DNA of 32,000 nucleotides from Propionibacterium freudenreichii subsp. freudenreichii (lineage in GTDB: Bacteria; Actinomycetota; Actinomycetes; Propionibacteriales; Propionibacteriaceae), in contig NZ_CP010341.1 of assembly GCF_000940845.1 (NCBI RefSeq), positions 660,001 to 692,000 on the forward strand, given 5' to 3'. This document shows positions 964-21,746 of the stretch, one piece after another. How positions within the stretch are numbered: position 1 is the first letter of the stretch; each line of letters starts with the position of its first letter. Made by a program: the position numbers and the translations under genes. The notes beneath the pieces were generated by a model. The model saw nothing but the letters and a program-made list of their open reading frames with translations. It was not told the origin of the DNA and did not search any database.

Positions 964-994
964 GTAACTGTTCAGGTGGTGGCTGGGGTCCAGG
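964..994. repeat. IS66 left terminal inverted repeat (imperfect beyond the first 12 bp)
   Basis: GTAACTGTTCAGGTGGTGGCTGGGGTCCAGG compared with the reverse complement of 2411-2442, GTAACTGTTCAGCTGGTGGGTTCGGGGGTCTG. Confidence 0.7.
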
Positions 995-2351
995 CCTGTC
1001 CGTTGAACAGGTCGACGAGGACCTGGTAGGTGTTGCAGGCCTGCTTGGTGGCGGTGGACAGGTAGGAGCGCAGCCGGAGGAAGCCCTCGGCGCCGGTCAG
1101 AGTGCGGTGGCATCCCGAGACCTTCTGATGCACCTTGACCATGCGGATCTCGCGTTCAGCGGCGTTGTTGTCGGGTGCCAGGCCCGGTGTGGTGGCGAAG
1201 CGCAGGTAGTCGTCGATCCGGGCACTGATCCGCCGGGCCAGGGCGCGGTGCTTCGCCCCGACCTTCCCGGGCACTCCCGAATCCGCACCCAGTCGTGCTG
1301 CGTCGACGATGAGACGCCGCCCGGCCTCCAGCAGTCCGGGGTCGGCCTGTCCTGCGGCGGCGTGGGGATCGCGGATCAGCGGCAGGAGGGCGTCGAGGAC
1401 CTGGCGGGCCCAGCAGAACGCCCCGGGCGGGTCGTGGGCGTCGTGGTGGTCGGCCACCGCGACCAGTTCGCGGATCAGGTGGGCGCAGCACAGTTGGTGG
1501 TCCACGTGCTCGTAGGTGTCGTAGGGGGCCCACGCGTCATGGACCAGCACACCGGTGCAGCCGGGCAGGATGCCGGCGGCATCCATCCCCGCCCGGCCCC
1601 GCCGCCGGTGCACACTGATATGCGAGTACTGACCGGTGGAGGCCGAGTGGACCCAGTGCAGCTTCCCAGCGACCCGCAGCCCGGTCTCATCGGCGTGGAC
1701 GACAGGGGATGCGGCGATCCGGCCCGCCACCTGGCCGGTGAAGGCGTCCAGGGGCTCACCGCCCGCCTGTTCGACGGCGGCGGCCACCGCCCCGGTCGAC
1801 ACGGGCATCCCCAGCAGGTCGGCCATGGTCACCGCGACCCGCCTGATCGGTATGTACTGGCCGGCGGCCAGGTAGACCATCGCCGCACGGGCCGCCGGCC
1901 CGTAGGAGACCGGCGCGGCCACCCCGGCCGGAGCCGTCCCCGCCGTCAGGTGCCCGCAGGCGCACCGGCGGGTGAGGATCTGGTGCTCGGTCACCACCGC
2001 GCGCACCTGGGGCAGGTCGACCACCTGCCGGGCCACCACACCCACGTCGCAGCACTCGTCCAGGACCCCGCCGCAGGCCGGGCACCGGTCCGGGGCGTGG
2101 GTCACGATGTGATCGGGATGATCGACCTGGCGCAGGGCCGCACCCGGATGGCCGGGCTGGCCGCCCGGGTGCCGTTCTGAGGGGCGCCGCAAGGATTTCG
2201 GGGCCGGCTTGGCCAACCCGTCTGCCGAGGGTGGCTTCGACGAGTTGCGCGAGGTCGACCCGAGTTGGCGTTCCAACTCAGCGATCTGGGCCGCCTGGGC
2301 GGCCACCAGCCCGACCAGCTCGTCATAGGTGGGTTTACGCGACCGCGGCAT
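972..2351 (-). CDS. IS66-family transposase (TnpC-like), 459 aa
   Basis: ORF 972-2405, with the start trimmed to ATG 2351 (MPRSRKPTYDEL). It has an N-terminal coiled-coil-like AAQAAQIAELERQL, Cys pairs DRCPACGG and RRCACGH, and HADETGLRV, HWVH, CCAHLIRE and DNNAAEREIR motifs typical of IS66 TnpC. Confidence 0.88.
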   Translation of the reverse strand: MPRSRKPTYDELVGLVAAQAAQIAELERQLGSTSRNSSKPPSADGLAKPAPKSLRRPSERHPGGQPGHPGAALRQVDHPDHIVTHAPDRCPACGGVLDECCDVGVVARQVVDLPQVRAVVTEHQILTRRCACGHLTAGTAPAGVAAPVSYGPAARAAMVYLAAGQYIPIRRVAVTMADLLGMPVSTGAVAAAVEQAGGEPLDAFTGQVAGRIAASPVVHADETGLRVAGKLHWVHSASTGQYSHISVHRRRGRAGMDAAGILPGCTGVLVHDAWAPYDTYEHVDHQLCCAHLIRELVAVADHHDAHDPPGAFCWARQVLDALLPLIRDPHAAAGQADPGLLEAGRRLIVDAARLGADSGVPGKVGAKHRALARRISARIDDYLRFATTPGLAPDNNAAEREIRMVKVHQKVSGCHRTLTGAEGFLRLRSYLSTATKQACNTYQVLVDLFNGQAWTPATT

Positions 2352-2410
2352 GCCCCGAATACTCCACCTCCAGCCCCCGGACCAGCGACGCGACACGCCG
2401 CACACCCCGC

Positions 2411-2442
2411 CAGACCCCCGAACCCACCAGCTGAACAGTTAC
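2411..2442. repeat. IS66 right terminal inverted repeat
   Basis: See left IR; the terminal 12 bp are a perfect inverted match. Confidence 0.7.
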
Positions 2443-2779: not shown

Positions 2780-4089
<1,310 letters not shown>

Positions 4090-14088: not shown

Positions 14089-15129
14089 GTGAGCGAACAG
14101 ACACCGCCCCCGGGCGGCACATCCGGTCCGGACCCTGCGCGCGAAGAGCCGGTGATCAGTGCCTTCACCGAACCCCAGGAGAGCGCCACGACGCCATCGG
14201 GGGCCCACATCCCCACCCCCGTGCCCATGCCAGGATTCGCTCCACCACCGCCGATGCCCGCGCCCACTGCGGCGGGGATCATCGGCGACGACCCGTCGCT
14301 GGATGAACCGGTGCCCACCTCGGTCGCGCCGGGACGGACCCGTCCCGTGCGCCCTCCCGGCCCGCCCGCACTGAGCATCGTCGGATTGCGCAAGGCCTTC
14401 GGGGCCAAGCTCGCCGTCGCCGACCTGTCCATGGCCGTGCCGCGGGGCTGCATGTTCGGACTCGTCGGCCCCAACGGTGCCGGCAAGACCACCACCCTGT
14501 CGATGGCCACCGGATTGCTGCGCCCCGACGCCGGGCAGGTGCTGGTGGGCGATGTCGACGTCTGGGCCGACCCGGCCCGCGCCAAGGCCCTGATGGGCGT
14601 GCTGCCCGACGGCCTGCGCCTGTTCGACCGCCTCAGCGGACGCGAGCTGCTCAAGTTCGTCGGCCAGATGCGCCGCATGGACGAGGCCACCATCACCGAT
14701 CGCAGCAACCAACTCCTGTCGACCCTGGGCCTGTCCGAGGACGCCAACACGATGGTGGCCGACTATTCGGCCGGCATGACCAAGAAGATCGGCCTGGCCT
14801 GCGCGCTGATCCACCGCCCGCGCCTGCTGGTGCTCGACGAGCCCTTCGAATCAGTCGATCCGGTGTCGGGCGAGACCATCCGCGAGATCCTGCACGATTT
14901 CGTCGCCGGCGGCGGCACCGTCGTGCTGTCAAGCCATGTGATGGAACTGGTGGAGACACTGTGTGACGCCGTTGCGGTGATGGCGGCCGGACGCCTGCTG
15001 GCGATCGGCGACACCGACGACGTGCGCCAGGGCAAGCCCCTGCAGCAGCGCTTCCTCGAGCTCGTCGGGGCCCATCACCTCGAGGGAGGTGGCCTTTCAT
15101 GGTTGGGACGCTCGCAAAGCTCCAACTGA
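14089..15129 (+). CDS. ABC transporter ATP-binding protein (ABC-2/DrrA-like) with about 100-aa Pro-rich N-terminal extension
   Basis: Walker A GPNGAGKTT, signature YSAGMTKK, Walker B LLVLDEP, H-loop SSH. GTG 14089 is preceded by AGGAAAGG. The true start could be further downstream. Confidence 0.82.
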   Translation: MSEQTPPPGGTSGPDPAREEPVISAFTEPQESATTPSGAHIPTPVPMPGFAPPPPMPAPTAAGIIGDDPSLDEPVPTSVAPGRTRPVRPPGPPALSIVGLRKAFGAKLAVADLSMAVPRGCMFGLVGPNGAGKTTTLSMATGLLRPDAGQVLVGDVDVWADPARAKALMGVLPDGLRLFDRLSGRELLKFVGQMRRMDEATITDRSNQLLSTLGLSEDANTMVADYSAGMTKKIGLACALIHRPRLLVLDEPFESVDPVSGETIREILHDFVAGGGTVVLSSHVMELVETLCDAVAVMAAGRLLAIGDTDDVRQGKPLQQRFLELVGAHHLEGGGLSWLGRSQSSN

Positions 15130-16691
15130 CGCTCGCCTGGCGGGGCGTCCGCTCCAGCACGGGGCGCATCATCGGCACCGTCATCATGGGCATCTACGGG
15201 CTCGGGCTGACGGCATTGCTGGTCTTCGGCCTGGTGATGATGCGCACCCCCGCAATGGACGCCTGGCGCGGGCCGGTGCTCACCCTGGCCTTCGGCCTGG
15301 TCACCCTGGGCTGGCCGCTGATCACCATGTTCACCGCCGGCAGCAACGAACTGCTCGATCCCGGACGCTTCGCCCTGTTCCCGGTGACCGCCCGCCAGCT
15401 CATCCCCGGCCTGTTCGCGGCGGCCATGCTCGGCGCCGGCGCCCTCGATACGGCACTGCTGGCGCTGGGCACCGTCATTAGCTGGTCGGGCGGGCTCGGC
15501 ACCGCCGTGGCCGCCGCAGTGGGTGCGGTGCTCGGCGTCGCCACCTGCGTGATCAGCGCCCGTGCCCTCACCGCGCTCATGTCGCGGGTGCTGGCCTCGC
15601 GCCGCTTCCGTGACGTCGGGGGCGTGGCCTTCTTCGCCGTGATCATGGCGGTGAGCTTCGGCATGCAATTCGGATCGCGGATCTTCGCCGACTCGGGTGC
15701 CCCGCAGGACGTCATCTTCATCGCGGCGCGGATCACCTCGTGGACCCCCTTCGGCTGGGCGTGGGCGCTGCCCTGGGACGTCGCGCAGGGGGCATGGTTG
15801 CCCGCGGCGGCGCACCTGGTGCTTGCTGCGGCACTGGTCTGGGCGCTGCTGCGGCTGTGGGAACGCAGCCTGGCCCGGGCCCTGGTCTCACCGCTCGACA
15901 GCGCCGCCGTCGGCGGCACCGTGAAGTCCGGACGCTTCGACTTCCTGGCCCCGCGTGGCCCGATCGGTGCCGTGGCGCGCCGCGACCTGCGGTATTGGCG
16001 ACGCGACCCGCGCCGGCTCATCCAGCTGCTGGCCGTGATCGTGGTGCCGGTGTTCATGTTCGCGCCCGGACTGGCCCAGGGGATGTCGCAGGGTTCCAAC
16101 TTCGCGGTGGACTTCGCCGCGGTGCTCGGCGGCGTGATCGTGGCCTCCACGCTGGCCTGGAGCATCAGCTATGACGGCTCCGCCCTGTGGATGCAGGTGC
16201 TCAGCGGCGTCACCGGACGCGAGGACCGGATCGGACGCTGCTGGAGCGTCACCATCGTCACCGCGCCCTATTTGTTGGTGGTGCTGTTCGGCTCGCTGTT
16301 CCTCACCGGTGACTGGCAGTTGCTGCCCGGCCTGATCGGGGCGTTGATCGCCGCCTTCGGATCATCCCTGGGTGTCGGCTCGCTCGTGGGCGCCCTGTGG
16401 CAACAGGCGATGCCCGCGCCCGGCGGCAATGTCTTCTCGCGCGGCTCGGGAACCACCGCCGAGAACTTCCTCGGCTCGATGGTTGCCATGATCGCGCCGA
16501 TCGTGCTCACTGCACCCAGCCTGGCGTTGGCGATCGTCTCGTGGTGGAAGCCGTGGGCCGGGTGGGCCGCCATCGTGGTGGGCCTGGTCATCGGCTCGCT
16601 GGCCTGCTGGGCCGGCGTGCGGCTGGGCGGACGCCATCTGGACAAGCACTGGCCCGAGGTGCTCAACAAGGTGAAGGAGACCCACGCCTGA
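15099..16691 (+). CDS. ABC exporter permease, large polytopic membrane protein, 530 aa
   Basis: Overlaps the ATPase gene by 31 nt, with GGGAGG upstream of ATG 15099. About 12 hydrophobic segments in two halves. No specific family recognised. Confidence 0.7.
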   Translation: MVGTLAKLQLTLAWRGVRSSTGRIIGTVIMGIYGLGLTALLVFGLVMMRTPAMDAWRGPVLTLAFGLVTLGWPLITMFTAGSNELLDPGRFALFPVTARQLIPGLFAAAMLGAGALDTALLALGTVISWSGGLGTAVAAAVGAVLGVATCVISARALTALMSRVLASRRFRDVGGVAFFAVIMAVSFGMQFGSRIFADSGAPQDVIFIAARITSWTPFGWAWALPWDVAQGAWLPAAAHLVLAAALVWALLRLWERSLARALVSPLDSAAVGGTVKSGRFDFLAPRGPIGAVARRDLRYWRRDPRRLIQLLAVIVVPVFMFAPGLAQGMSQGSNFAVDFAAVLGGVIVASTLAWSISYDGSALWMQVLSGVTGREDRIGRCWSVTIVTAPYLLVVLFGSLFLTGDWQLLPGLIGALIAAFGSSLGVGSLVGALWQQAMPAPGGNVFSRGSGTTAENFLGSMVAMIAPIVLTAPSLALAIVSWWKPWAGWAAIVVGLVIGSLACWAGVRLGGRHLDKHWPEVLNKVKETHA

Positions 16692-16705
16692 GCCGATGCG
16701 GGACG

Positions 16706-17557
16706 CTAGTCGAACCGGGCCTGGCGCGAGGTGCGCCGCAGGATGCGCATCAGGGGTCTGCCCAACAGGGCGATGAGTACGGCATTGGTCAGGGCACGGC
16801 CCATGTTCCAGCCGGCCGAGGTGACCGTGTCGAGCACGAAGAAGGTGTGCAGGTTGCGCCAGGGACTTGCCTCGGGATCGAAGCCGGGTGCGCCCATGCC
16901 CAGGCCGGTGGTGAAGGGCCAGAACGCGAAGTCCAGCAGATATCCGTAGCCGAAACCGGCGACGAAGCCGTAGAGGCACAGCACCACGATCTCACCGACC
17001 GACCCGGGACGCGGCCGGCGGCGGGGCAACAGGCCGGGCAGCAGCCCCACGAAACCGGCCCCGAGCATCTGATAGGGCAACCAGGTGCCCACCCCGCCGG
17101 TCAGGAGCGCCGAGGAGAACATCGTGAGGATGCCCAGCATGAATCCGAAGCTCGGGCCGAAGACGCGCCCGGCCAGGATCAGGAGCACGAAGACGGTTTC
17201 GATGCCGGCGGTGCCCGCGCTCACCGGCCGCACCGCAGTGCCCACGGCGGCCAGCACGCCCAGCATCGCCAGGGCCTTCACGTCCAGGTCCTCATTGGAC
17301 AGCTCGGCAATCAGCAGGGCCAGCACCACGGCCATGATGGCGCCCATCACGAAGGGGGTGGCGGTGCGTCCGGAGGAGTCGGAGCCCAACACGGCTCCGG
17401 GACGCACGAACAGCGGCCAGCAGAAGGCCACCAACCCCAGCACGGCGGTGACGGCGAGCATCACCGAGGTGCGGGCGGACAGCCGCTTGCGTGGCTCCAG
17501 GGGCATCAGATAGCCACCGGCCGTCGCCGGCTCGCGGTGGCGCGTCAGCAGGTTCAT
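16706..17557 (-). CDS. Putative ECF-transporter substrate-specific (S) component, 283 aa
   Basis: ORF 16706-18040 trimmed to ATG 17557, which overlaps the ATPase stop (ATGA). It is a small polytopic membrane protein and the last gene of the ECF operon. The S-component assignment is by context and topology, not by motif. Confidence 0.6.
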   Translation of the reverse strand: MNLLTRHREPATAGGYLMPLEPRKRLSARTSVMLAVTAVLGLVAFCWPLFVRPGAVLGSDSSGRTATPFVMGAIMAVVLALLIAELSNEDLDVKALAMLGVLAAVGTAVRPVSAGTAGIETVFVLLILAGRVFGPSFGFMLGILTMFSSALLTGGVGTWLPYQMLGAGFVGLLPGLLPRRRPRPGSVGEIVVLCLYGFVAGFGYGYLLDFAFWPFTTGLGMGAPGFDPEASPWRNLHTFFVLDTVTSAGWNMGRALTNAVLIALLGRPLMRILRRTSRQARFD

Positions 17558-19170
17558 GGCCGTATCGCCCCGTCTGCCTGCTGACGGCGTCCACGACGCA
17601 CATCGGCCACCGTCAGGATCGGCTGCGGCCAGAACACCTTGGCCAGCTGCGGGGAGAAGGTCGGGGAGGCGGTGCATGCCTCGCGGGTGGTGTCGTCGGC
17701 GATGATGTCGCCCTCGGCCATCACGATCGTGCGGTCGGTGCTGGCGGCGGCGAACTCGACATCGTGGGTGGCCACCACGATGCACACACCGCGGGAGGCC
17801 AGGGTGCGCACCATCGTGGCCAGGTGGGCCTTCGTCGTGTAGTCCAGGCCGCGCGTGGGTTCGTCCAGCAGCACCACCCGCGGCCGCGAGGACAGTTGGA
17901 TCGCCAACACCAGCGCCAGGCGCTGTCCCTCGGACAGGTCGTGCGGGTCGCGGCCCATGTCCAGTGCCACGCCCAGCTCGGACAGCAGGCCGGCAGTGGT
18001 GCCCTCGTCGCGGCCGCTCTCCTTGTCGGCCTGGCGGCATTCATCGCCCACGCTGGGCAGGTAGAGCAGGTCCGCCGCCGTCTGCGGCACCAGGGTGACC
18101 AGTTCACGGGCCTTCTCGACGCTGACAGTGCGGGGATCGGCTCCGGCCACCTCCAGGGTGCCGGAACTCGCGACGGCCCCCTGCATCGCCCACATCAGCG
18201 AGCTCTTGCCAGCACCATTGCGTCCCATCAGGGCGGTGATCTCACCGGCGCGGAAAGCCGTGGTCACCGCATTGACCGCCCGCGTCTCGCCGTAGTCGAC
18301 GACCAGCTTGGTGGCGGTCAGCACCACGGGCCCGTCAGGCGCGGGTGCCTGCGGTGGGTCGGTGAGCACGATGTGCTCGGCCTTGACGCGTCGGCGCGCA
18401 TCGCGCACGGTGAGCGGCACGGTGCTCCAACCCAGCGCCTGTGCCAGGCCCACCAGGGGCGGACGTACATCGGCGCGGGCCAGGACGTCTCCGGCGGGGC
18501 CCACCTGCACCGACCCGTCACCGGGCAGCCATGCCACCGAGTCGGCGAAGGCCATGACGCGTTCCAGACGGTGCTCGGCCACCACGACGGTCAGCCCCAC
18601 CTCGTGCACCAGGGTGGTGATGGACGACAACACATCCTGGGCGGCCGTGGGATCCAGCGCACTGGTCGGTTCGTCGAGGACCACCACGCGCGGCTGGGCC
18701 GCCAACACCGCGGCGATCGCCACGCGCTGCTGTTGGCCGCCGGACAGGTCGGCCAGGGGCCGATGACGCAGGTCCGCGATGCCCATCAGGTCGAGTGTGT
18801 CCTCCACCCGACGTCGCATGGCCGGCTGGGCCACCCCCAACTGTTCCATCCCGTAGGCGATCTCGTCCTCAACCTTGTCGGTGACGAAACCGGCCAGTGG
18901 GTTTTGGCCGACGCTTCCCACCACGCGCGCCAGGTCGCGGGGGCGGTGTTGGCTGGTGACCATCGTGTCGACCTGCACCGTGCCGGTCAGGCGGCCGCCG
19001 TCGAACCAGGGAACCAGGCCGTTGATCGAGCGCAGCAACGTTGACTTGCCGGTGCCGGTGCGTCCCACCAGCAGGCACAGGTCGCCCTCGGGGATCTGGA
19101 AGCTGACATCGTGCAGCACCGGATCGCTGGCGCCGGTGTAGGTGAAACTGACATCGCGGAATTCGATCAT
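17554..19170 (-). CDS. ECF transporter fused double ATPase (EcfA-EcfA'), 538 aa
   Basis: Two complete ABC cassettes: GRTGTGKST / LSGGQQQRVAIA / VVVLDEPTSALD and GRNGAGKSS / LSEGQRLALVLA / VVLLDEPTRGLD. The start overlaps the T-component stop (ATGA). Confidence 0.9.
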   Translation of the reverse strand: MIEFRDVSFTYTGASDPVLHDVSFQIPEGDLCLLVGRTGTGKSTLLRSINGLVPWFDGGRLTGTVQVDTMVTSQHRPRDLARVVGSVGQNPLAGFVTDKVEDEIAYGMEQLGVAQPAMRRRVEDTLDLMGIADLRHRPLADLSGGQQQRVAIAAVLAAQPRVVVLDEPTSALDPTAAQDVLSSITTLVHEVGLTVVVAEHRLERVMAFADSVAWLPGDGSVQVGPAGDVLARADVRPPLVGLAQALGWSTVPLTVRDARRRVKAEHIVLTDPPQAPAPDGPVVLTATKLVVDYGETRAVNAVTTAFRAGEITALMGRNGAGKSSLMWAMQGAVASSGTLEVAGADPRTVSVEKARELVTLVPQTAADLLYLPSVGDECRQADKESGRDEGTTAGLLSELGVALDMGRDPHDLSEGQRLALVLAIQLSSRPRVVLLDEPTRGLDYTTKAHLATMVRTLASRGVCIVVATHDVEFAAASTDRTIVMAEGDIIADDTTREACTASPTFSPQLAKVFWPQPILTVADVRRGRRQQADGAIRP

Positions 19171-20300
19171 GCCTCGCCTGCCGGGGGAGTGGTGGTGGCC
19201 GCAATCGGGGCCAGGATCAGCCCGATGATCACGATCATCAGAGGGTCAAGGGCCGGCCAGGTGGCGGGCTGGGCCGGCGGGGTGAGCACCTTCGGCGCGA
19301 TGATGCCGAGCTGCACCGTGATGCCGATCACGGCCAGGCCACACAGGGCCGTGATGGATTCACGGGCCCGCCAGGGGTCGGGGCGGTAGTGGGTGACCGC
19401 GAGTTGCCGGCCCGACGAGCGCAACGCGATCACGGCGGCCACCACTCCGGCGCCGAGCGTCGAAATGCCCAGCGCCGCGCCGTTGGCCAGCGACAGTAGC
19501 GAGAAGGCACCGAAACACAGCAACGCCAGGGAGGCGAGCATCGCGAATCCGGCGCCCCGTCCCACGCGGGCCTTGTCGCGGGTGGAGCCGTAGCCGCGCG
19601 ATTCCATGGACGCGGCCAGGCTCATCGAGCGTTCGATGGAGTCCTGCAGCACGGGGATGATGAGCGCGCCCAGGCCACGTAGCCCCCGCACGGTGCCACC
19701 GCGTAGCCGACGTGCCCGGCGGATGCGCAGCAGCGACTCGACCAGTTGGGGTGCCACCGACATGGCGATCACCAGCGCCGTGGACACCTCATAGAGCGCG
19801 GAGGGCACCGAACGCAGGGCCCTCTTGGGATTCGCCAGTGCATTCGCCGCACCCAGGCAGATGATCATGGCGCCGAGCCGTCCCGCATCGGCGGCGGTGT
19901 ACACCAGGCCCTCCAGCGTCACCGGGCCGCCCAGCCTGATGCCGGCCATCCAGCCGGGCAATTGCAGCTGGGGCAGCGTGAAGAGCACCCTGCCGTACCG
20001 GATGCCACCGATGGTGATCTGGAAGAGCATTCGGATGGTGACGATCACCAGCGCCAGGGTGATGTAGAGGCCCATGGCGCGGGCCCACGGCGCGTCGCTG
20101 CGGCGCACCATCACCACCGTGATCACGGCGGCGCAGACCAGCACGATGAGCGCCAGGTTGTGGGTGAGGCTCACTGCCGCGGCGGCACCGATCGCCCAGC
20201 ACCACCATGCCCAGGGGTGGGTGCTGCGACGCGCCATGCGGTGGACGCTGGCCGGGGCGGCGACCACCGGTGCCGCAAGCCGCGGCAGGAGCCTGCTCAC
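19167..20300 (-). CDS. ECF transporter transmembrane (T) component, CbiQ/EcfT family, with extra C-terminal TM region, 377 aa
   Basis: Coupling-helix Ala-Arg-Gly-type motifs (LLRIRRARRLRGG, AASMESRGYG). Polytopic. It is about 100 aa longer than typical EcfT proteins. The GTG 20300 start is uncertain. Confidence 0.78.
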   Translation of the reverse strand: MSRLLPRLAAPVVAAPASVHRMARRSTHPWAWWCWAIGAAAAVSLTHNLALIVLVCAAVITVVMVRRSDAPWARAMGLYITLALVIVTIRMLFQITIGGIRYGRVLFTLPQLQLPGWMAGIRLGGPVTLEGLVYTAADAGRLGAMIICLGAANALANPKRALRSVPSALYEVSTALVIAMSVAPQLVESLLRIRRARRLRGGTVRGLRGLGALIIPVLQDSIERSMSLAASMESRGYGSTRDKARVGRGAGFAMLASLALLCFGAFSLLSLANGAALGISTLGAGVVAAVIALRSSGRQLAVTHYRPDPWRARESITALCGLAVIGITVQLGIIAPKVLTPPAQPATWPALDPLMIVIIGLILAPIAATTTPPAGEA

Positions 20301-20312
20301 GCGAGGGGCCGA

Positions 20313-20855
20313 TCAGGAACCGGAGACGGAGCTCGTGGCGGAGCTGGCCTCGGCGCTCTGGCTTGCACTCGCCGCAGCGGACACGCCGTCGAGCTTGGGC
20401 GTGCAGGTGGTGCCGTAGCACCAGCCCTCGATCGAGCCGGCCTTGGGCGATGAGTCGTCGGCGCCCTTGTCGGAATAGGTCCAGCTGCCGTTGGGCGTGG
20501 CCGTGTAGTACTGCCAGTAGGCGCCGGTGAAGGTGGCCGGGCACGGGTTGGGGTAGTCGCCCAGGGTGCAGATCATCTTGCCGTCGGAGCTGCGTCCGAT
20601 CGCCACATTGGCGGCCTCCAGGGCGGCGGTGCCGGTGCTTGGCGTACCGACGCACTGGTTGGCAAGCGTCTTGTCCTGGTCGGTCTGCACGACGAGCCAC
20701 ACCTTGCCCTGGCTGGTGCAGTCCTTCATCGACAGCGCCGTGGCGGTGTTCGACGGTGAGCTCGACGAGCCTGACGTCGACGAGGAACAGCCCGCCAGGG
20801 CGGTGATGGCGCACAGTCCGAGGGCTGCGACGGCAAGGGTGGGTGAGGACTTCAT
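20313..20855 (-). CDS. Secreted Cys-rich lipoprotein (possible DUF4430/transcobalamin-beta-like fold), about 180 aa
   Basis: Signal peptide plus lipobox (AITALAGC), then a Ser/Thr linker, a core with 6 further Cys, and an Ala/Ser tail. ATG 20855 has the RBS AAAGGAAG; the alternative ATG 20870 has none. The core pattern VWLVV...TGTAALEAANV...ICTLGDYP...YWQYY...GSWTYSDKGA...GSIEGWCY resembles DUF4430 from memory only. Confidence 0.7.
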   Translation of the reverse strand: MKSSPTLAVAALGLCAITALAGCSSSTSGSSSSPSNTATALSMKDCTSQGKVWLVVQTDQDKTLANQCVGTPSTGTAALEAANVAIGRSSDGKMICTLGDYPNPCPATFTGAYWQYYTATPNGSWTYSDKGADDSSPKAGSIEGWCYGTTCTPKLDGVSAAASASQSAEASSATSSVSGS

Positions 20856-20870
20856 GGTGCTTCCTTTCAT

Positions 20871-20930
20871 GGGCGGCGGACCGGAGCCCGCCGGCTTTCC
20901 TGGGCGGCGGTACGGAACCCGCCGGCTTTC
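20871..20930 (-). repeat. Two tandem 29-nt repeat units (period 31) in the riboswitch expression platform, each able to form a GGCGG-N8-CCGCC hairpin
   Basis: RNA-sense unit A (20930-20902) is GAAAGCCGGCGGGTTCCGTACCGCCGCCC. Unit B (20899-20871) is GAAAGCCGGCGGGCTCCGGTCCGCCGCCC. They match at 26/29 positions, and unit B ends directly at ATG 20870. Confidence 0.8.
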
Positions 20931-21004
20931 ACGGGGCTCCGGAGAGGAGCGCGCCCGGGGGAAGCGGCTACTCCTCGGCCGTTGCCTCGACGGTACGGAG
21001 TACG

Positions 21005-21092
21005 GACCCCATGAGGTGCTCCGGCTTGCCGCGCAGGCGGCTCACGGTTGCGGGACAGCTCCGGTTTCACACCGGCTTTCCCTCATCGGGTC
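21005..21092 (-). promoter_or_regulatory. Cobalamin (B12) riboswitch aptamer core
   Basis: Minus-strand RNA reads GACCCGAUGAGG-GAAAGCCGGUGUGAAACCGGAGCUGUCCCGCAACCGUGA-GCCGCCUGCGCGGC-AAGCCGGAGCACC-UCAUGGGGUC. It carries the conserved cobalamin core (AGGGAA..GGUG.GAA.CCGG..CUG.CCCGCAAC.GU) and a B12-box-like AAGCCGGAGCACC (21027-21015). The outer arms 21092-21081 and 21016-21005 pair with one mismatch. Recognised by eye, not by a covariance model. Confidence 0.8.
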
Positions 21093-21146
21093 ACGCAGCA
21101 CAATCTAGCCCAGCAGGGACGCCGCGAGGCGAGGGTTTGTGCTTGC

Positions 21147-21746
21147 TCAGTGCCGGCGCGTGACGTCGAACACCCGATAGCCCTTCGCTGAGCCGAGGCG
21201 ATCGACCTGCCAGCCCTGGCCGGTCAGCCATTTCGCCAGCGAGTCCGAGCCGAGGTTGTGGGCCACCACCAGGTGGGCGACACCATCCTCGGTGAGGCGG
21301 TTCAGCCAGGTGTCCAACAGCTCGTGCAGCGCGGCCTTGCCGATGCGGATCGGCGGGTTCGACCAGATTTCGTCGTAGCGCACGTCGGCGGGCACCTGAT
21401 CGGGGGCCGACGCGCTCACCCGACTCGCCACCCCCAGGGCCTTCGCGTTCATGGCGGTGAGTTCCACCGCACGCTCGTTCACGTCGATGGCGTCCACCCG
21501 GGCCCGGGGGCACTCGGTGGCAAGGGCGACGGCGATCGGTCCGAAGCCGCAGCCGAGATCGAGGAAGCGCGCCGGACGGTCCGCCGGCGGATCCAGGGTG
21601 CGCAGCAGCACCGAGGTGCCCAGGTCCAGGCGGTACTGGCTGAAGACGCCATTGGAGCTGCGGAACTCGTAGTCATGTCCCCAGATGGTGGCGTGCAGCT
21701 GGTGGTACTTGGCCGGGCCCTCGGGGTTGACGAAGTACTGGGTCAT
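21147..21746 (-). CDS. Class I SAM-dependent methyltransferase, RsmC/RlmG-like (MTS domain), 199 aa
   Basis: ORF 21147-21866 trimmed to ATG 21746 (GAGGAG 6 nt upstream). Motif I is FLDLGCGFGPIAVALA and motif IV is NPPIRIG, typical of N2-guanine rRNA methyltransferases. Confidence 0.75.
   Translation of the reverse strand: MTQYFVNPEGPAKYHQLHATIWGHDYEFRSSNGVFSQYRLDLGTSVLLRTLDPPADRPARFLDLGCGFGPIAVALATECPRARVDAIDVNERAVELTAMNAKALGVASRVSASAPDQVPADVRYDEIWSNPPIRIGKAALHELLDTWLNRLTEDGVAHLVVAHNLGSDSLAKWLTGQGWQVDRLGSAKGYRVFDVTRRH

Follow-up and report, generated by a model that had tools for sequence, protein, structure and literature searches.

A cobalamin-riboswitch operon of Propionibacterium freudenreichii encodes a candidate corrinoid importer with a predicted transcobalamin-like lipoprotein

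The operon and its riboswitch leader

Exact-sequence look-ups of the encoded proteins assign the 32-kb stretch of DNA analysed here (the window) to Propionibacterium freudenreichii, and its minus strand carries the subject of this report, a four-gene operon behind a cobalamin riboswitch (Table 1). Reading 5' to 3' from the riboswitch, the genes encode a lipoprotein, the T component of an energy-coupling factor (ECF) transporter, its fused double ATP-binding cassette (ABC) ATPase (A) and an S component. An earlier note on this DNA, drawn from the letters alone, had described the same four co-directional genes and had taken the host for a B12-producing propionibacterium; the species look-up and the Pfam and NCBIfam matches of the T, A and S proteins agree with that description. 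The ATGA start/stop overlaps reported there between the last three genes are visible in the sequence at 19167-19170 (T/A) and 17554-17557 (A/S), and A/S overlaps of four nucleotides are annotated in relatives too.

Public records already hold part of this picture. The lipoprotein is identical to AJQ90305.1, deposited as 'hypothetical protein / Lipoprotein', and the S component to AJQ90302.1, which some records name 'Substrate-specific component CbrT of predicted cobalamin ECF transporter'. For the ATPase the deposited name reads 'ABC transporter, ATP-binding protein, cobalt'. Public annotation thus anticipates the central idea about function. A SEED role, 'additional lipoprotein component of predicted cobalamin ECF transporter', counts among the closest known counterparts of the lipoprotein. 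Annotated starts vary for two of the genes: GTG 20300 (377 aa) or ATG 20237 (356 aa) for T, and ATG 17557 (283 aa) or ATG 17506 (264-266 aa) for S, where the shorter version leaves no A/S overlap. Conservation of both proteins in other genera starts near residues 20-29.

Table 1. Features of the operon and its leader, with positions in the window.
Feature	Position	Strand	Remark
Cobalamin-clan riboswitch aptamer	20966..21105	-	best Rfam family RF01482 AdoCbl
Expression platform	20856..20965	-	predicted anti-SD:SD pairing (SD, Shine-Dalgarno sequence)
Two tandem 31-nt GC-hairpin repeats in leader	20871..20930	-	repeat family D1
Lipoprotein, 180 aa, SCO2322 family (PF28005)	20313..20855	-	lipobox LAGC, Cys23
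EcfT/CbiQ-type T component, 377 aa	19167..20300	-	PF02361
Fused double ECF-type ABC ATPase (EcfA-A'), 538 aa	17554..19170	-	two ABC_tran domains
ECF S component, 283 aa	16706..17557	-	PF12822

Rfam assigns the aptamer to RF01482 (clan CL00101; model coverage 1-149) at 52.0 bits against a gathering score of 50, with an E-value of 5.9e-7. This is the sole Rfam match in the window, one overlapping lower-scoring match of the same clan being suppressed. It encloses the riboswitch core that the earlier note had located at 21005-21092, and its family shares a clan with RF00174, the model named there. A genome scan with an alignment of S homologs gathered 80 actinobacterial loci, of which 71 contain the T gene and 69 of those are non-truncated. 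Rfam reports cobalamin-clan riboswitches upstream of the cassette in seven of ten diverse loci, with RF00174 or RF01689 over their gathering scores. A custom covariance model (R1, built on 8 riboswitch instances) scores 107.8 bits at 20968-21104 of the window and returns 66 matches in the related loci at E <= 3e-10, every one on the cassette strand and upstream of T. Counted by locus, a riboswitch lies upstream in 63 of the 71 T-containing loci, that is to say in 63 of the 69 non-truncated ones, since two of the eight loci lacking it are truncated. Across 68 aligned instances 91.6% of cells pair (slid-partner controls <=46%), compensatory changes occur in 20 of 27 pairs, and the core GGGAA..CGGTG..CCG..CTG.CCCGCAAC.GT...AG.C.G...CC is invariant. 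On this comparative sequence evidence, the leader is a cobalamin riboswitch.

Inspection of the expression platform suggests how the switch may act. Directly 3' of the aptamer lies the anti-SD GCUUCC (20960-20965), fully complementary to GGAAGC (20859-20864) in the SD region, where the full SD AAAGGAAG occupies 20860-20867 just upstream of the start codon at 20853-20855, and the minimum-free-energy and centroid folds of the platform both pair the anti-SD with the SD hexamer. The pairing is kept in a close relative (L082) and in P. cyclohexanicum (L002), where UCUUCCUUUC faces GAAAGGAAGA in a longer helix with a compensatory change. Folding of the whole leader is uninformative (z -1.25). Neither an intrinsic terminator nor a sigma-70-like promoter was found in 16500-21400, and switching by transcription termination was discarded for want of such a terminator. 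The fold prediction and the one compensatory change lead us to infer translational repression by sequestration of the SD when B12 is bound. The position of AAAGGAAG, the deposited length of 180 aa and the conservation of the position in relatives make ATG 20855, rather than 20870, the most likely start of the lipoprotein.

An insertion of ~64 nucleotides, made up of two 31-nt GC-hairpin repeats, separates the aptamer from the SD and corresponds to a gap in the aligned close relatives L082 and L002. The repeat, with the consensus GAAAGCCGGCGGG[Y]TCCG[K][W]CCGCCGCCC, has these two matches against 0 expected by chance and occurs nowhere else in the window. Each copy opens with GAAAGCCGG, which is also present in the aptamer.

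The lipoprotein and the transporter module

Following its lipobox, the lipoprotein consists of a Ser/Thr-rich linker, a beta-grasp core at residues ~41-160 and a low-complexity tail. The six Cys besides Cys23, counted already in the earlier note, are invariant in 16 homologs, which also share several Trp, an EGW motif, G70, G92 and G99. An AlphaFold2 model built from 16 sequences gives most of the core (residues 41-160) a predicted local distance difference test (pLDDT) score >90 and arranges it as beta1-beta2-helix-beta-hairpin-beta3 onward, with elements E53-57, E63-68, H75-81, the hairpin E86-88/E95-98, E114-119 and E142-147. When this model is compared with the PDB by Foldseek, the first 16 ranks are taken up entirely by transcobalamin, haptocorrin and intrinsic factor, aligned over their beta domains, and the isolated beta domain of human transcobalamin (5NP4) reaches a template modelling (TM) score of 0.58 (target-normalised) at a probability of 1.0. 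Ranks 17-18 are 3U7Z, a DUF4430 structure from R. gnavus, at TM 0.71. Probabilities are >=0.99 throughout ranks 1-18 and <0.3 beyond rank 18, where ubiquitin and UBX folds appear.

A beta-hairpin inserted after the helix is the defining feature of the transcobalamin-like SLBB clade (Burroughs et al. 2007, PMC1796856). The lipoprotein family keeps three glycines without exception, G70 just after strand 2 and G92 and G99 on either side of the hairpin tip, and I95 almost without exception; compared with the written description, the positions of G70, G99 and I95 fit the glycines and hairpin hydrophobic residue by which Burroughs and colleagues defined SLBB domains. The core of the lipoprotein is thus predicted to fold like a transcobalamin beta domain (SLBB), and this beta-grasp domain is probably stapled by up to three disulfides. 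A sequence-level tie to DUF4430 or transcobalamin was considered and rejected, Pfam being blank and a profile search of the PDB giving only a spurious FlgD match (E 1.2). With no match at the level of sequence, the transcobalamin link therefore rests on predicted structure and genomic context. Of the resemblance to DUF4430 and transcobalamin that the earlier note had suggested, the fold is borne out by the Foldseek result and the DUF4430 Pfam model is not.

The family to which the lipoprotein belongs is reached only in part by existing models. NCBIfam NF040672 (SCO2322 family) gives 32.1 bits against a cut-off of 85, over residues 118-155 only. PF28005 (SCO2322) is precomputed for 11 of 15 homologs, one of them the cluster representative (96% identity), with some of the matches marked weak or faint. 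In the Pfam copy searched, which lacks PF28005, no match falls in the SCO2322-like region of five relatives from longer operons (described below) or of ten multidomain relatives. With a subfamily profile, 1,875 clusters (50% identity) are matched at E <= 1e-3, so the SCO2322-like family is large. Tethering to the cell surface takes two forms among 161 family members, 43 having a lipobox-like motif and 112 a C-terminal transmembrane anchor with a basic tail. In three further proteins (P0218, P0259 and P0260) SCO2322-like domains are fused to long leucine-rich-repeat (LRR) arrays, with or without an immunoglobulin (Ig) domain, in surface proteins of up to 1,497 aa; these fusions suggest that the domain is used outside ECF cassettes too.

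The T component matches CbiQ (PF02361) at 46.9 bits (E 3.4e-12) over residues 35-239 only of its 377, and carries the coupling motifs ARR (residue 196) and SRG (residue 234). The additional C-terminal membrane region that the earlier note had described appears here as an extension of ~130 aa with ~4 hydrophobic segments at residues 246-368. Since tblastn matches to T reach ~residues 350-377 in most related loci, the extension is a family trait. In the ATPase PF00005 matches twice, TIGR04520 and TIGR04521 each score ~270 bits, and Walker A, signature and Walker B motifs are intact in both halves; cbiO-type NCBIfam models also score well.

The S component falls in PF12822 (ECF_trnsprt), scoring 33.5 bits (gathering score 30.7). 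Its scores lie far below the cut-offs for FolT (21.9 against 60) and RibU (17.1 against 99), two of the non-corrinoid families that the earlier note had named as contrary evidence; none of the computational findings that it listed as contrary turned up. That note had also seen no CbiM-type start and no CbiN gene, and the protein does begin MNLLTRH rather than MHxxEG, has no match to CbiM (PF01891) and is accompanied by neither CbiN nor any fifth gene at the operon. Its homologs number >3,400, the named ones all from Actinobacteria. An AlphaFold2 model (pLDDT 79) finds its best Foldseek matches in the S components FolT, RibU, PanT and ThiT, at probability ~1 and TM scores to the target of 0.5-0.64. 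A profile of 23 S homologs run against all PDB chains (E<=10) has just two matches, the folate S component 5D0Y (E 4.4) and a designed protein, and CbrT of Lactobacillus delbrueckii (ECF complex PDB 6FNP) is not among the top 50 Foldseek matches of the model. Homology to L. delbrueckii CbrT was rejected on these two results. The S component forms a family of its own, and the deposited label 'CbrT' seems to reflect predicted function or genomic context rather than homology. As judged from their domains, the genes are supported as a dedicated (group I) ECF module with a non-CbiM S component.

The cassette across Actinobacteria

Searches of the related loci by tblastn with the four window proteins recover lipoprotein, T, A and S in this order in almost every locus of sufficient length, from Propionibacteriales, Micrococcales, Dermatophilaceae/Intrasporangiaceae and Nocardioides/Marmoricola to Pseudonocardiales, Lentzea, Streptomyces and Acidimicrobiia. 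The lipoprotein gene, present in many loci as two or three tandem paralogs, stands directly upstream of T in 64 of the 71 T-containing loci (63 of the 69 non-truncated) and downstream of the riboswitch wherever one is present.

In 48 of the 71 loci the beta-like gene or genes are immediately preceded by a further gene, for a secreted protein of ~360-420 aa, and in the 46 of these that bear a riboswitch this gene lies between the riboswitch and the beta-like genes. Its products give sub-threshold matches to SQHop_cyclase_C and Prenyltrans, both alpha/alpha toroids and so of the same fold class as the alpha domain of transcobalamin. Among distant family members the two kinds of domain also occur in single proteins: P0185 joins SQHop_cyclase_C (28.5 bits against a gathering score of 26.1) to an SCO2322-like domain and CWB2 wall-binding repeats, and P0245 has the opposite order, an SCO2322-like domain followed by Prenyltrans. 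Because separate toroid and beta-like genes stand beside the ECF genes, this actinobacterial 'long form' can be read as an ECF transporter accompanied by a transcobalamin-like protein split into two. The window and 15 other loci, e.g. in P. cyclohexanicum, Xylanimonas, Luteococcus and some Nocardioides/Marmoricola, have the 'short form', in which the beta-like lipoprotein stands without a toroid. In Xylanimonas ulmi (L001, 1-7600) the short-form cassette is divergent from an adenosylcobalamin-dependent ethanolamine-utilisation operon that encodes EutH, EutN, EutA, EutB, EutC, bacterial microcompartment shell proteins and an aldehyde dehydrogenase.

Two loci hold two separate cobalamin riboswitch copies in one cassette (L059 at 1855-1991 and 3278-3418; L023 at 645-788 and 1587-1731). 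Because there are two copies per cassette, independent control is possible, and the doubled riboswitches may serve separate control of different long-form operon genes.

The remainder of the window is largely housekeeping. It encodes SecY, Map, RpoA, RpfB-like, EF-G-like and GlmM-like proteins and TrmB/TruA/MTS, plus an ABC-2 exporter and an IS66 transposase, and there are no further B12-related genes among these neighbours. The IS66-family transposase (972-2438, minus strand; DDE_Tnp_IS66, zf-IS66, DUF6444) lies beside the SecY-Adk-Map ribosomal-protein region. A mobile-element origin of the cassette was rejected because its site after TrmB-TruA-MTS is the same in L082, L083 and Cutibacterium. 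On the plus strand at 14089-16691, an ABC ATPase with a ~100-aa Pro-rich N-terminal extension and a 530-aa polytopic permease converge with the ECF operon at its 3' end. Beside the cassette in L082 the same pair recurs, and the permease homolog there has no recorded Pfam hit.

Candidate function, competing readings and significance

We favour, at odds of roughly two to one (a probability of about 0.68), the reading that the operon is a B12-repressed dedicated (group I) ECF importer for cobalamin or other corrinoids with a membrane-tethered extracellular capture lipoprotein. At low adenosylcobalamin, the sequence features of the leader suggest that the SD would be left free and the four genes translated, with T, A and S coupled in translation through their ATGA overlaps. 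The lipoprotein would be lipidated at Cys23 and tethered outside the membrane by its Ser/Thr-rich linker, where the predicted beta-grasp domain may bind a corrinoid and concentrate it at the membrane. By the general ECF mechanism, the corrinoid would then be handed to the S component, which would be moved by the extended EcfT at the expense of ATP hydrolysis in EcfA-A'. Abundant B12 would bind the aptamer, GCUUCC would pair with GGAAGC, and translation would be blocked.

The physiology of the host offers a place for such a system. B12 enters P. freudenreichii by way of a transporter that 'remains to be genetically identified', and external complete B12 rescues its delta-bluB mutant (PMC12307835, 2025). 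Cobalt uptake is served by a separate riboswitch-controlled cbiMNQO (PMC11494915), and published lists of P. freudenreichii riboswitches comprise cbiL, cbiB/cobD, mutA and cbiM, this locus being absent from them. The operon is the best candidate for the B12 uptake system of the species.

Several observations weigh against a corrinoid-capturing importer. Some concern the lipoprotein: it matches no family at E<=0.1 in the Pfam copy searched, DUF4430 (PF14478) included; its family profile finds no transcobalamin chain among all PDB sequences at E<=10; and the Foldseek E-values are modest (~1e-3), from a model built on 16 sequences. In transcobalamin, B12 is sandwiched between both domains, so a beta-only protein may bind weakly or only on the nucleotide-loop side, and a tblastn search of the 32-kb window with two alpha-toroid proteins found no toroid partner. 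On the transporter side, the S component has no detectable similarity to the sole experimentally proven B12 S component, L. delbrueckii CbrT. As to the leader, the z-score of the SD-sequestering fold is an unremarkable -1.3, and RF01482 exceeds its gathering score by only 2 bits; the latter is not a concern because homologous elements recur in relatives with strong covariation. In Cutibacterium (C. modestum, L003 3410-5385, and C. porci, L005) T-A-S is kept directly after TrmB-TruA-MTS with neither a riboswitch (Rfam, E<=1) nor an SCO2322-like lipoprotein. This importer seems to have lost its B12 control and capture protein, and the lipoprotein is therefore dispensable for at least some function. 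Lastly, a homologous architecture in L. sakei has been tied to heme uptake (bioRxiv 10.1101/864751).

The alternative that survives best, though we consider it unlikely, is that the operon takes up building blocks of B12 or corrinoids that are still incomplete (cobinamide, cobyric acid, cobyrinate diamide, dimethylbenzimidazole or alpha-ribazole) for late biosynthesis. SEED-derived signatures label cbrUVT 'cobyrinate diamide uptake' (PMC8123684), ECF-CbrT transports cobinamide too (PMC5997447), and the host, as a complete B12 producer, could finish such precursors. The transcobalamin beta domain, moreover, touches the nucleotide/base side, and the window encodes a beta-like protein only. Rescue of the delta-bluB mutant by complete B12, however, demands an importer of the complete vitamin, for which no other candidate is named (PMC12307835). 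Most relatives, furthermore, pair the beta-like protein with a toroid, as in transcobalamin, which binds whole cobalamin. The present data do not separate the two corrinoid forms, complete B12 and precursor.

A second possibility, to which we give about one chance in ten, keeps T-A-S as a corrinoid importer and denies the lipoprotein a part in substrate capture, making it an assembly or stability factor, another receptor or a merely co-transcribed surface protein. ECF-CbrT works in proteoliposomes without an accessory protein (PMC5997447), Cutibacterium has T-A-S alone, some SCO2322-like domains belong to LRR/Ig surface modules, and no sequence-level match links the family to B12-binding proteins. 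The genomic evidence is at odds with this, the gene being fixed between riboswitch and T across the loci counted above; so are a predicted fold that is specifically that of B12-binding beta domains and the repeated pairing or fusion with an alpha-toroid.

The earlier note had left the choice between a corrinoid and a cobalt importer open; a corrinoid is now favoured, and cobalt uptake by a divergent CbiMNQO analogue, with the Cys-rich lipoprotein as an extracellular metal binder, looks very improbable. B12 riboswitches do commonly govern cobalt transporters, the ATPase bears a cobalt label and cbiO-type scores, the lipoprotein has six conserved Cys, and the depositors of 3U7Z called it a 'putative metal binding protein'. 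Cobalt is nevertheless unlikely because the operon has no CbiM-type N-terminus, CbiM Pfam match or CbiN and the species already possesses a separate riboswitch-controlled cbiMNQO (PMC11494915). In addition, the cbiO-like scores amount to generic ECF ATPase similarity, extracytoplasmic Cys of actinobacterial lipoproteins more likely form disulfides, and the lipoprotein fold with its toroid partners and fusions points to a large organic ligand. Least probable of all is import of heme or another non-corrin tetrapyrrole, as its authors proposed for the L. sakei operon Lsa1836-1840 of the same architecture (bioRxiv 10.1101/864751), since 63 of 69 non-truncated loci carry a cobalamin riboswitch, an arrangement intelligible only for a product tied to B12 homeostasis, and the Xylanimonas cassette adjoins a eut operon.

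ECF transporters are usually described as needing no extracytoplasmic binding proteins. An exception was predicted by Burroughs, Balaji, Iyer and Aravind in 2007, who proposed that transcobalamin-like SLBB proteins in CbiO/CbiQ operons, secreted or anchored and often paired with paralogs or alpha/alpha toroids, are B12 scavengers; they listed the clade in Firmicutes, planctomycetes and euryarchaea, not in Actinobacteria, and in hosts usually without B12 synthesis (PMC1796856). The system described here resembles theirs in its small secreted or tethered beta-grasp protein with a hairpin insert, its operon with ECF T and A genes, the toroid partners and the tandem paralogs. It differs in that the SCO2322 family is missed by the DUF4430 Pfam model and has 4-6 conserved Cys, and in that this host makes B12. 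Given the 2007 prediction, the operon adds a member to a class of systems already described, although so far by prediction only.

Other known systems share parts of the arrangement. Transport of cobalamin and cobinamide by an ECF system has been shown only for ECF-CbrT of L. delbrueckii (Santos et al. 2018, PMC5997447). Like the ECF-CbrT genes, the operon encodes an ECF importer in a B12 genomic context, with an S protein under the same SEED name, and CbrS of the L. delbrueckii nrdJ-cbrS-cbrT-pduO cluster ranked among the systems closest to the lipoprotein. In contrast to CbrT, a group II protein served by a shared ECF module, the module in the window is dedicated, its ATPase is fused and its EcfT is ~130 aa longer; the S protein (266-283 aa) is longer than CbrT and shows no detectable likeness to it in sequence or within the top 50 structural matches. 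L. sakei Lsa1836-1840 is likewise a dedicated ECF operon, and its separate transcobalamin alpha-like and beta-like extracellular subunits equal the actinobacterial long form, whereas the window holds the beta-only short form under a cobalamin riboswitch and the L. sakei operon is linked to heme. With human transcobalamin, intrinsic factor and haptocorrin the lipoprotein core shares, by prediction, the beta-domain fold and the relatives' toroid the fold class of the alpha domain. These human proteins differ in lacking detectable sequence similarity to it, and the bacterial system has separate genes or no alpha part at all, a membrane tether, and a transporter in place of an endocytic receptor. 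CbiMNQO, finally, likewise belongs to the group I ECF systems, is regulated by a B12 riboswitch and combines a CbiQ-type T component with a CbiO-type ATPase; it is set apart by CbiM and CbiN, which are absent here, the S component belonging to PF12822 and not PF01891.

Novelty is accordingly modest, the general idea being known both from the 2007 prediction of the system type and from the public CbrT naming. What appears new is the placement, by structure prediction, of the SCO2322 family in the transcobalamin beta-domain fold, the occurrence of short and long architectures under a shared riboswitch, and the proposal of a specific locus as the candidate B12 importer in P. freudenreichii; full-text literature searches found no paper on SCO2322-SCO2325. 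A bolder proposal, which we hold tentatively and at somewhat less than even odds, is that the SCO2322 family forms a so far unrecognised, disulfide-stapled branch of the transcobalamin beta-fold and acts as a true extracytoplasmic substrate-binding protein that hands corrinoids to S, alone in the short form, as in P. freudenreichii, or with a separately encoded toroid in the long form.

Since the general idea is not new, the value of the finding lies in a specific assignment and a testable candidate rather than in a new principle. P. freudenreichii is a food-grade industrial producer of vitamin B12, and the operon gives it an importer candidate that can be deleted. The cassette occurs in dozens of actinobacterial genera in beta-only and alpha+beta forms, which makes the surface-protein prediction of 2007 tractable. 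If the bolder proposal is true, the operon would be the first demonstrated ECF importer dependent on a binding protein, and would identify the B12 importer of P. freudenreichii and of many other Actinobacteria. The SCO2322 family, with its 1,875 clusters, would gain a functional context, and on the bolder proposal the paired genes would represent a bacterial two-gene precursor state of the animal transcobalamin architecture.

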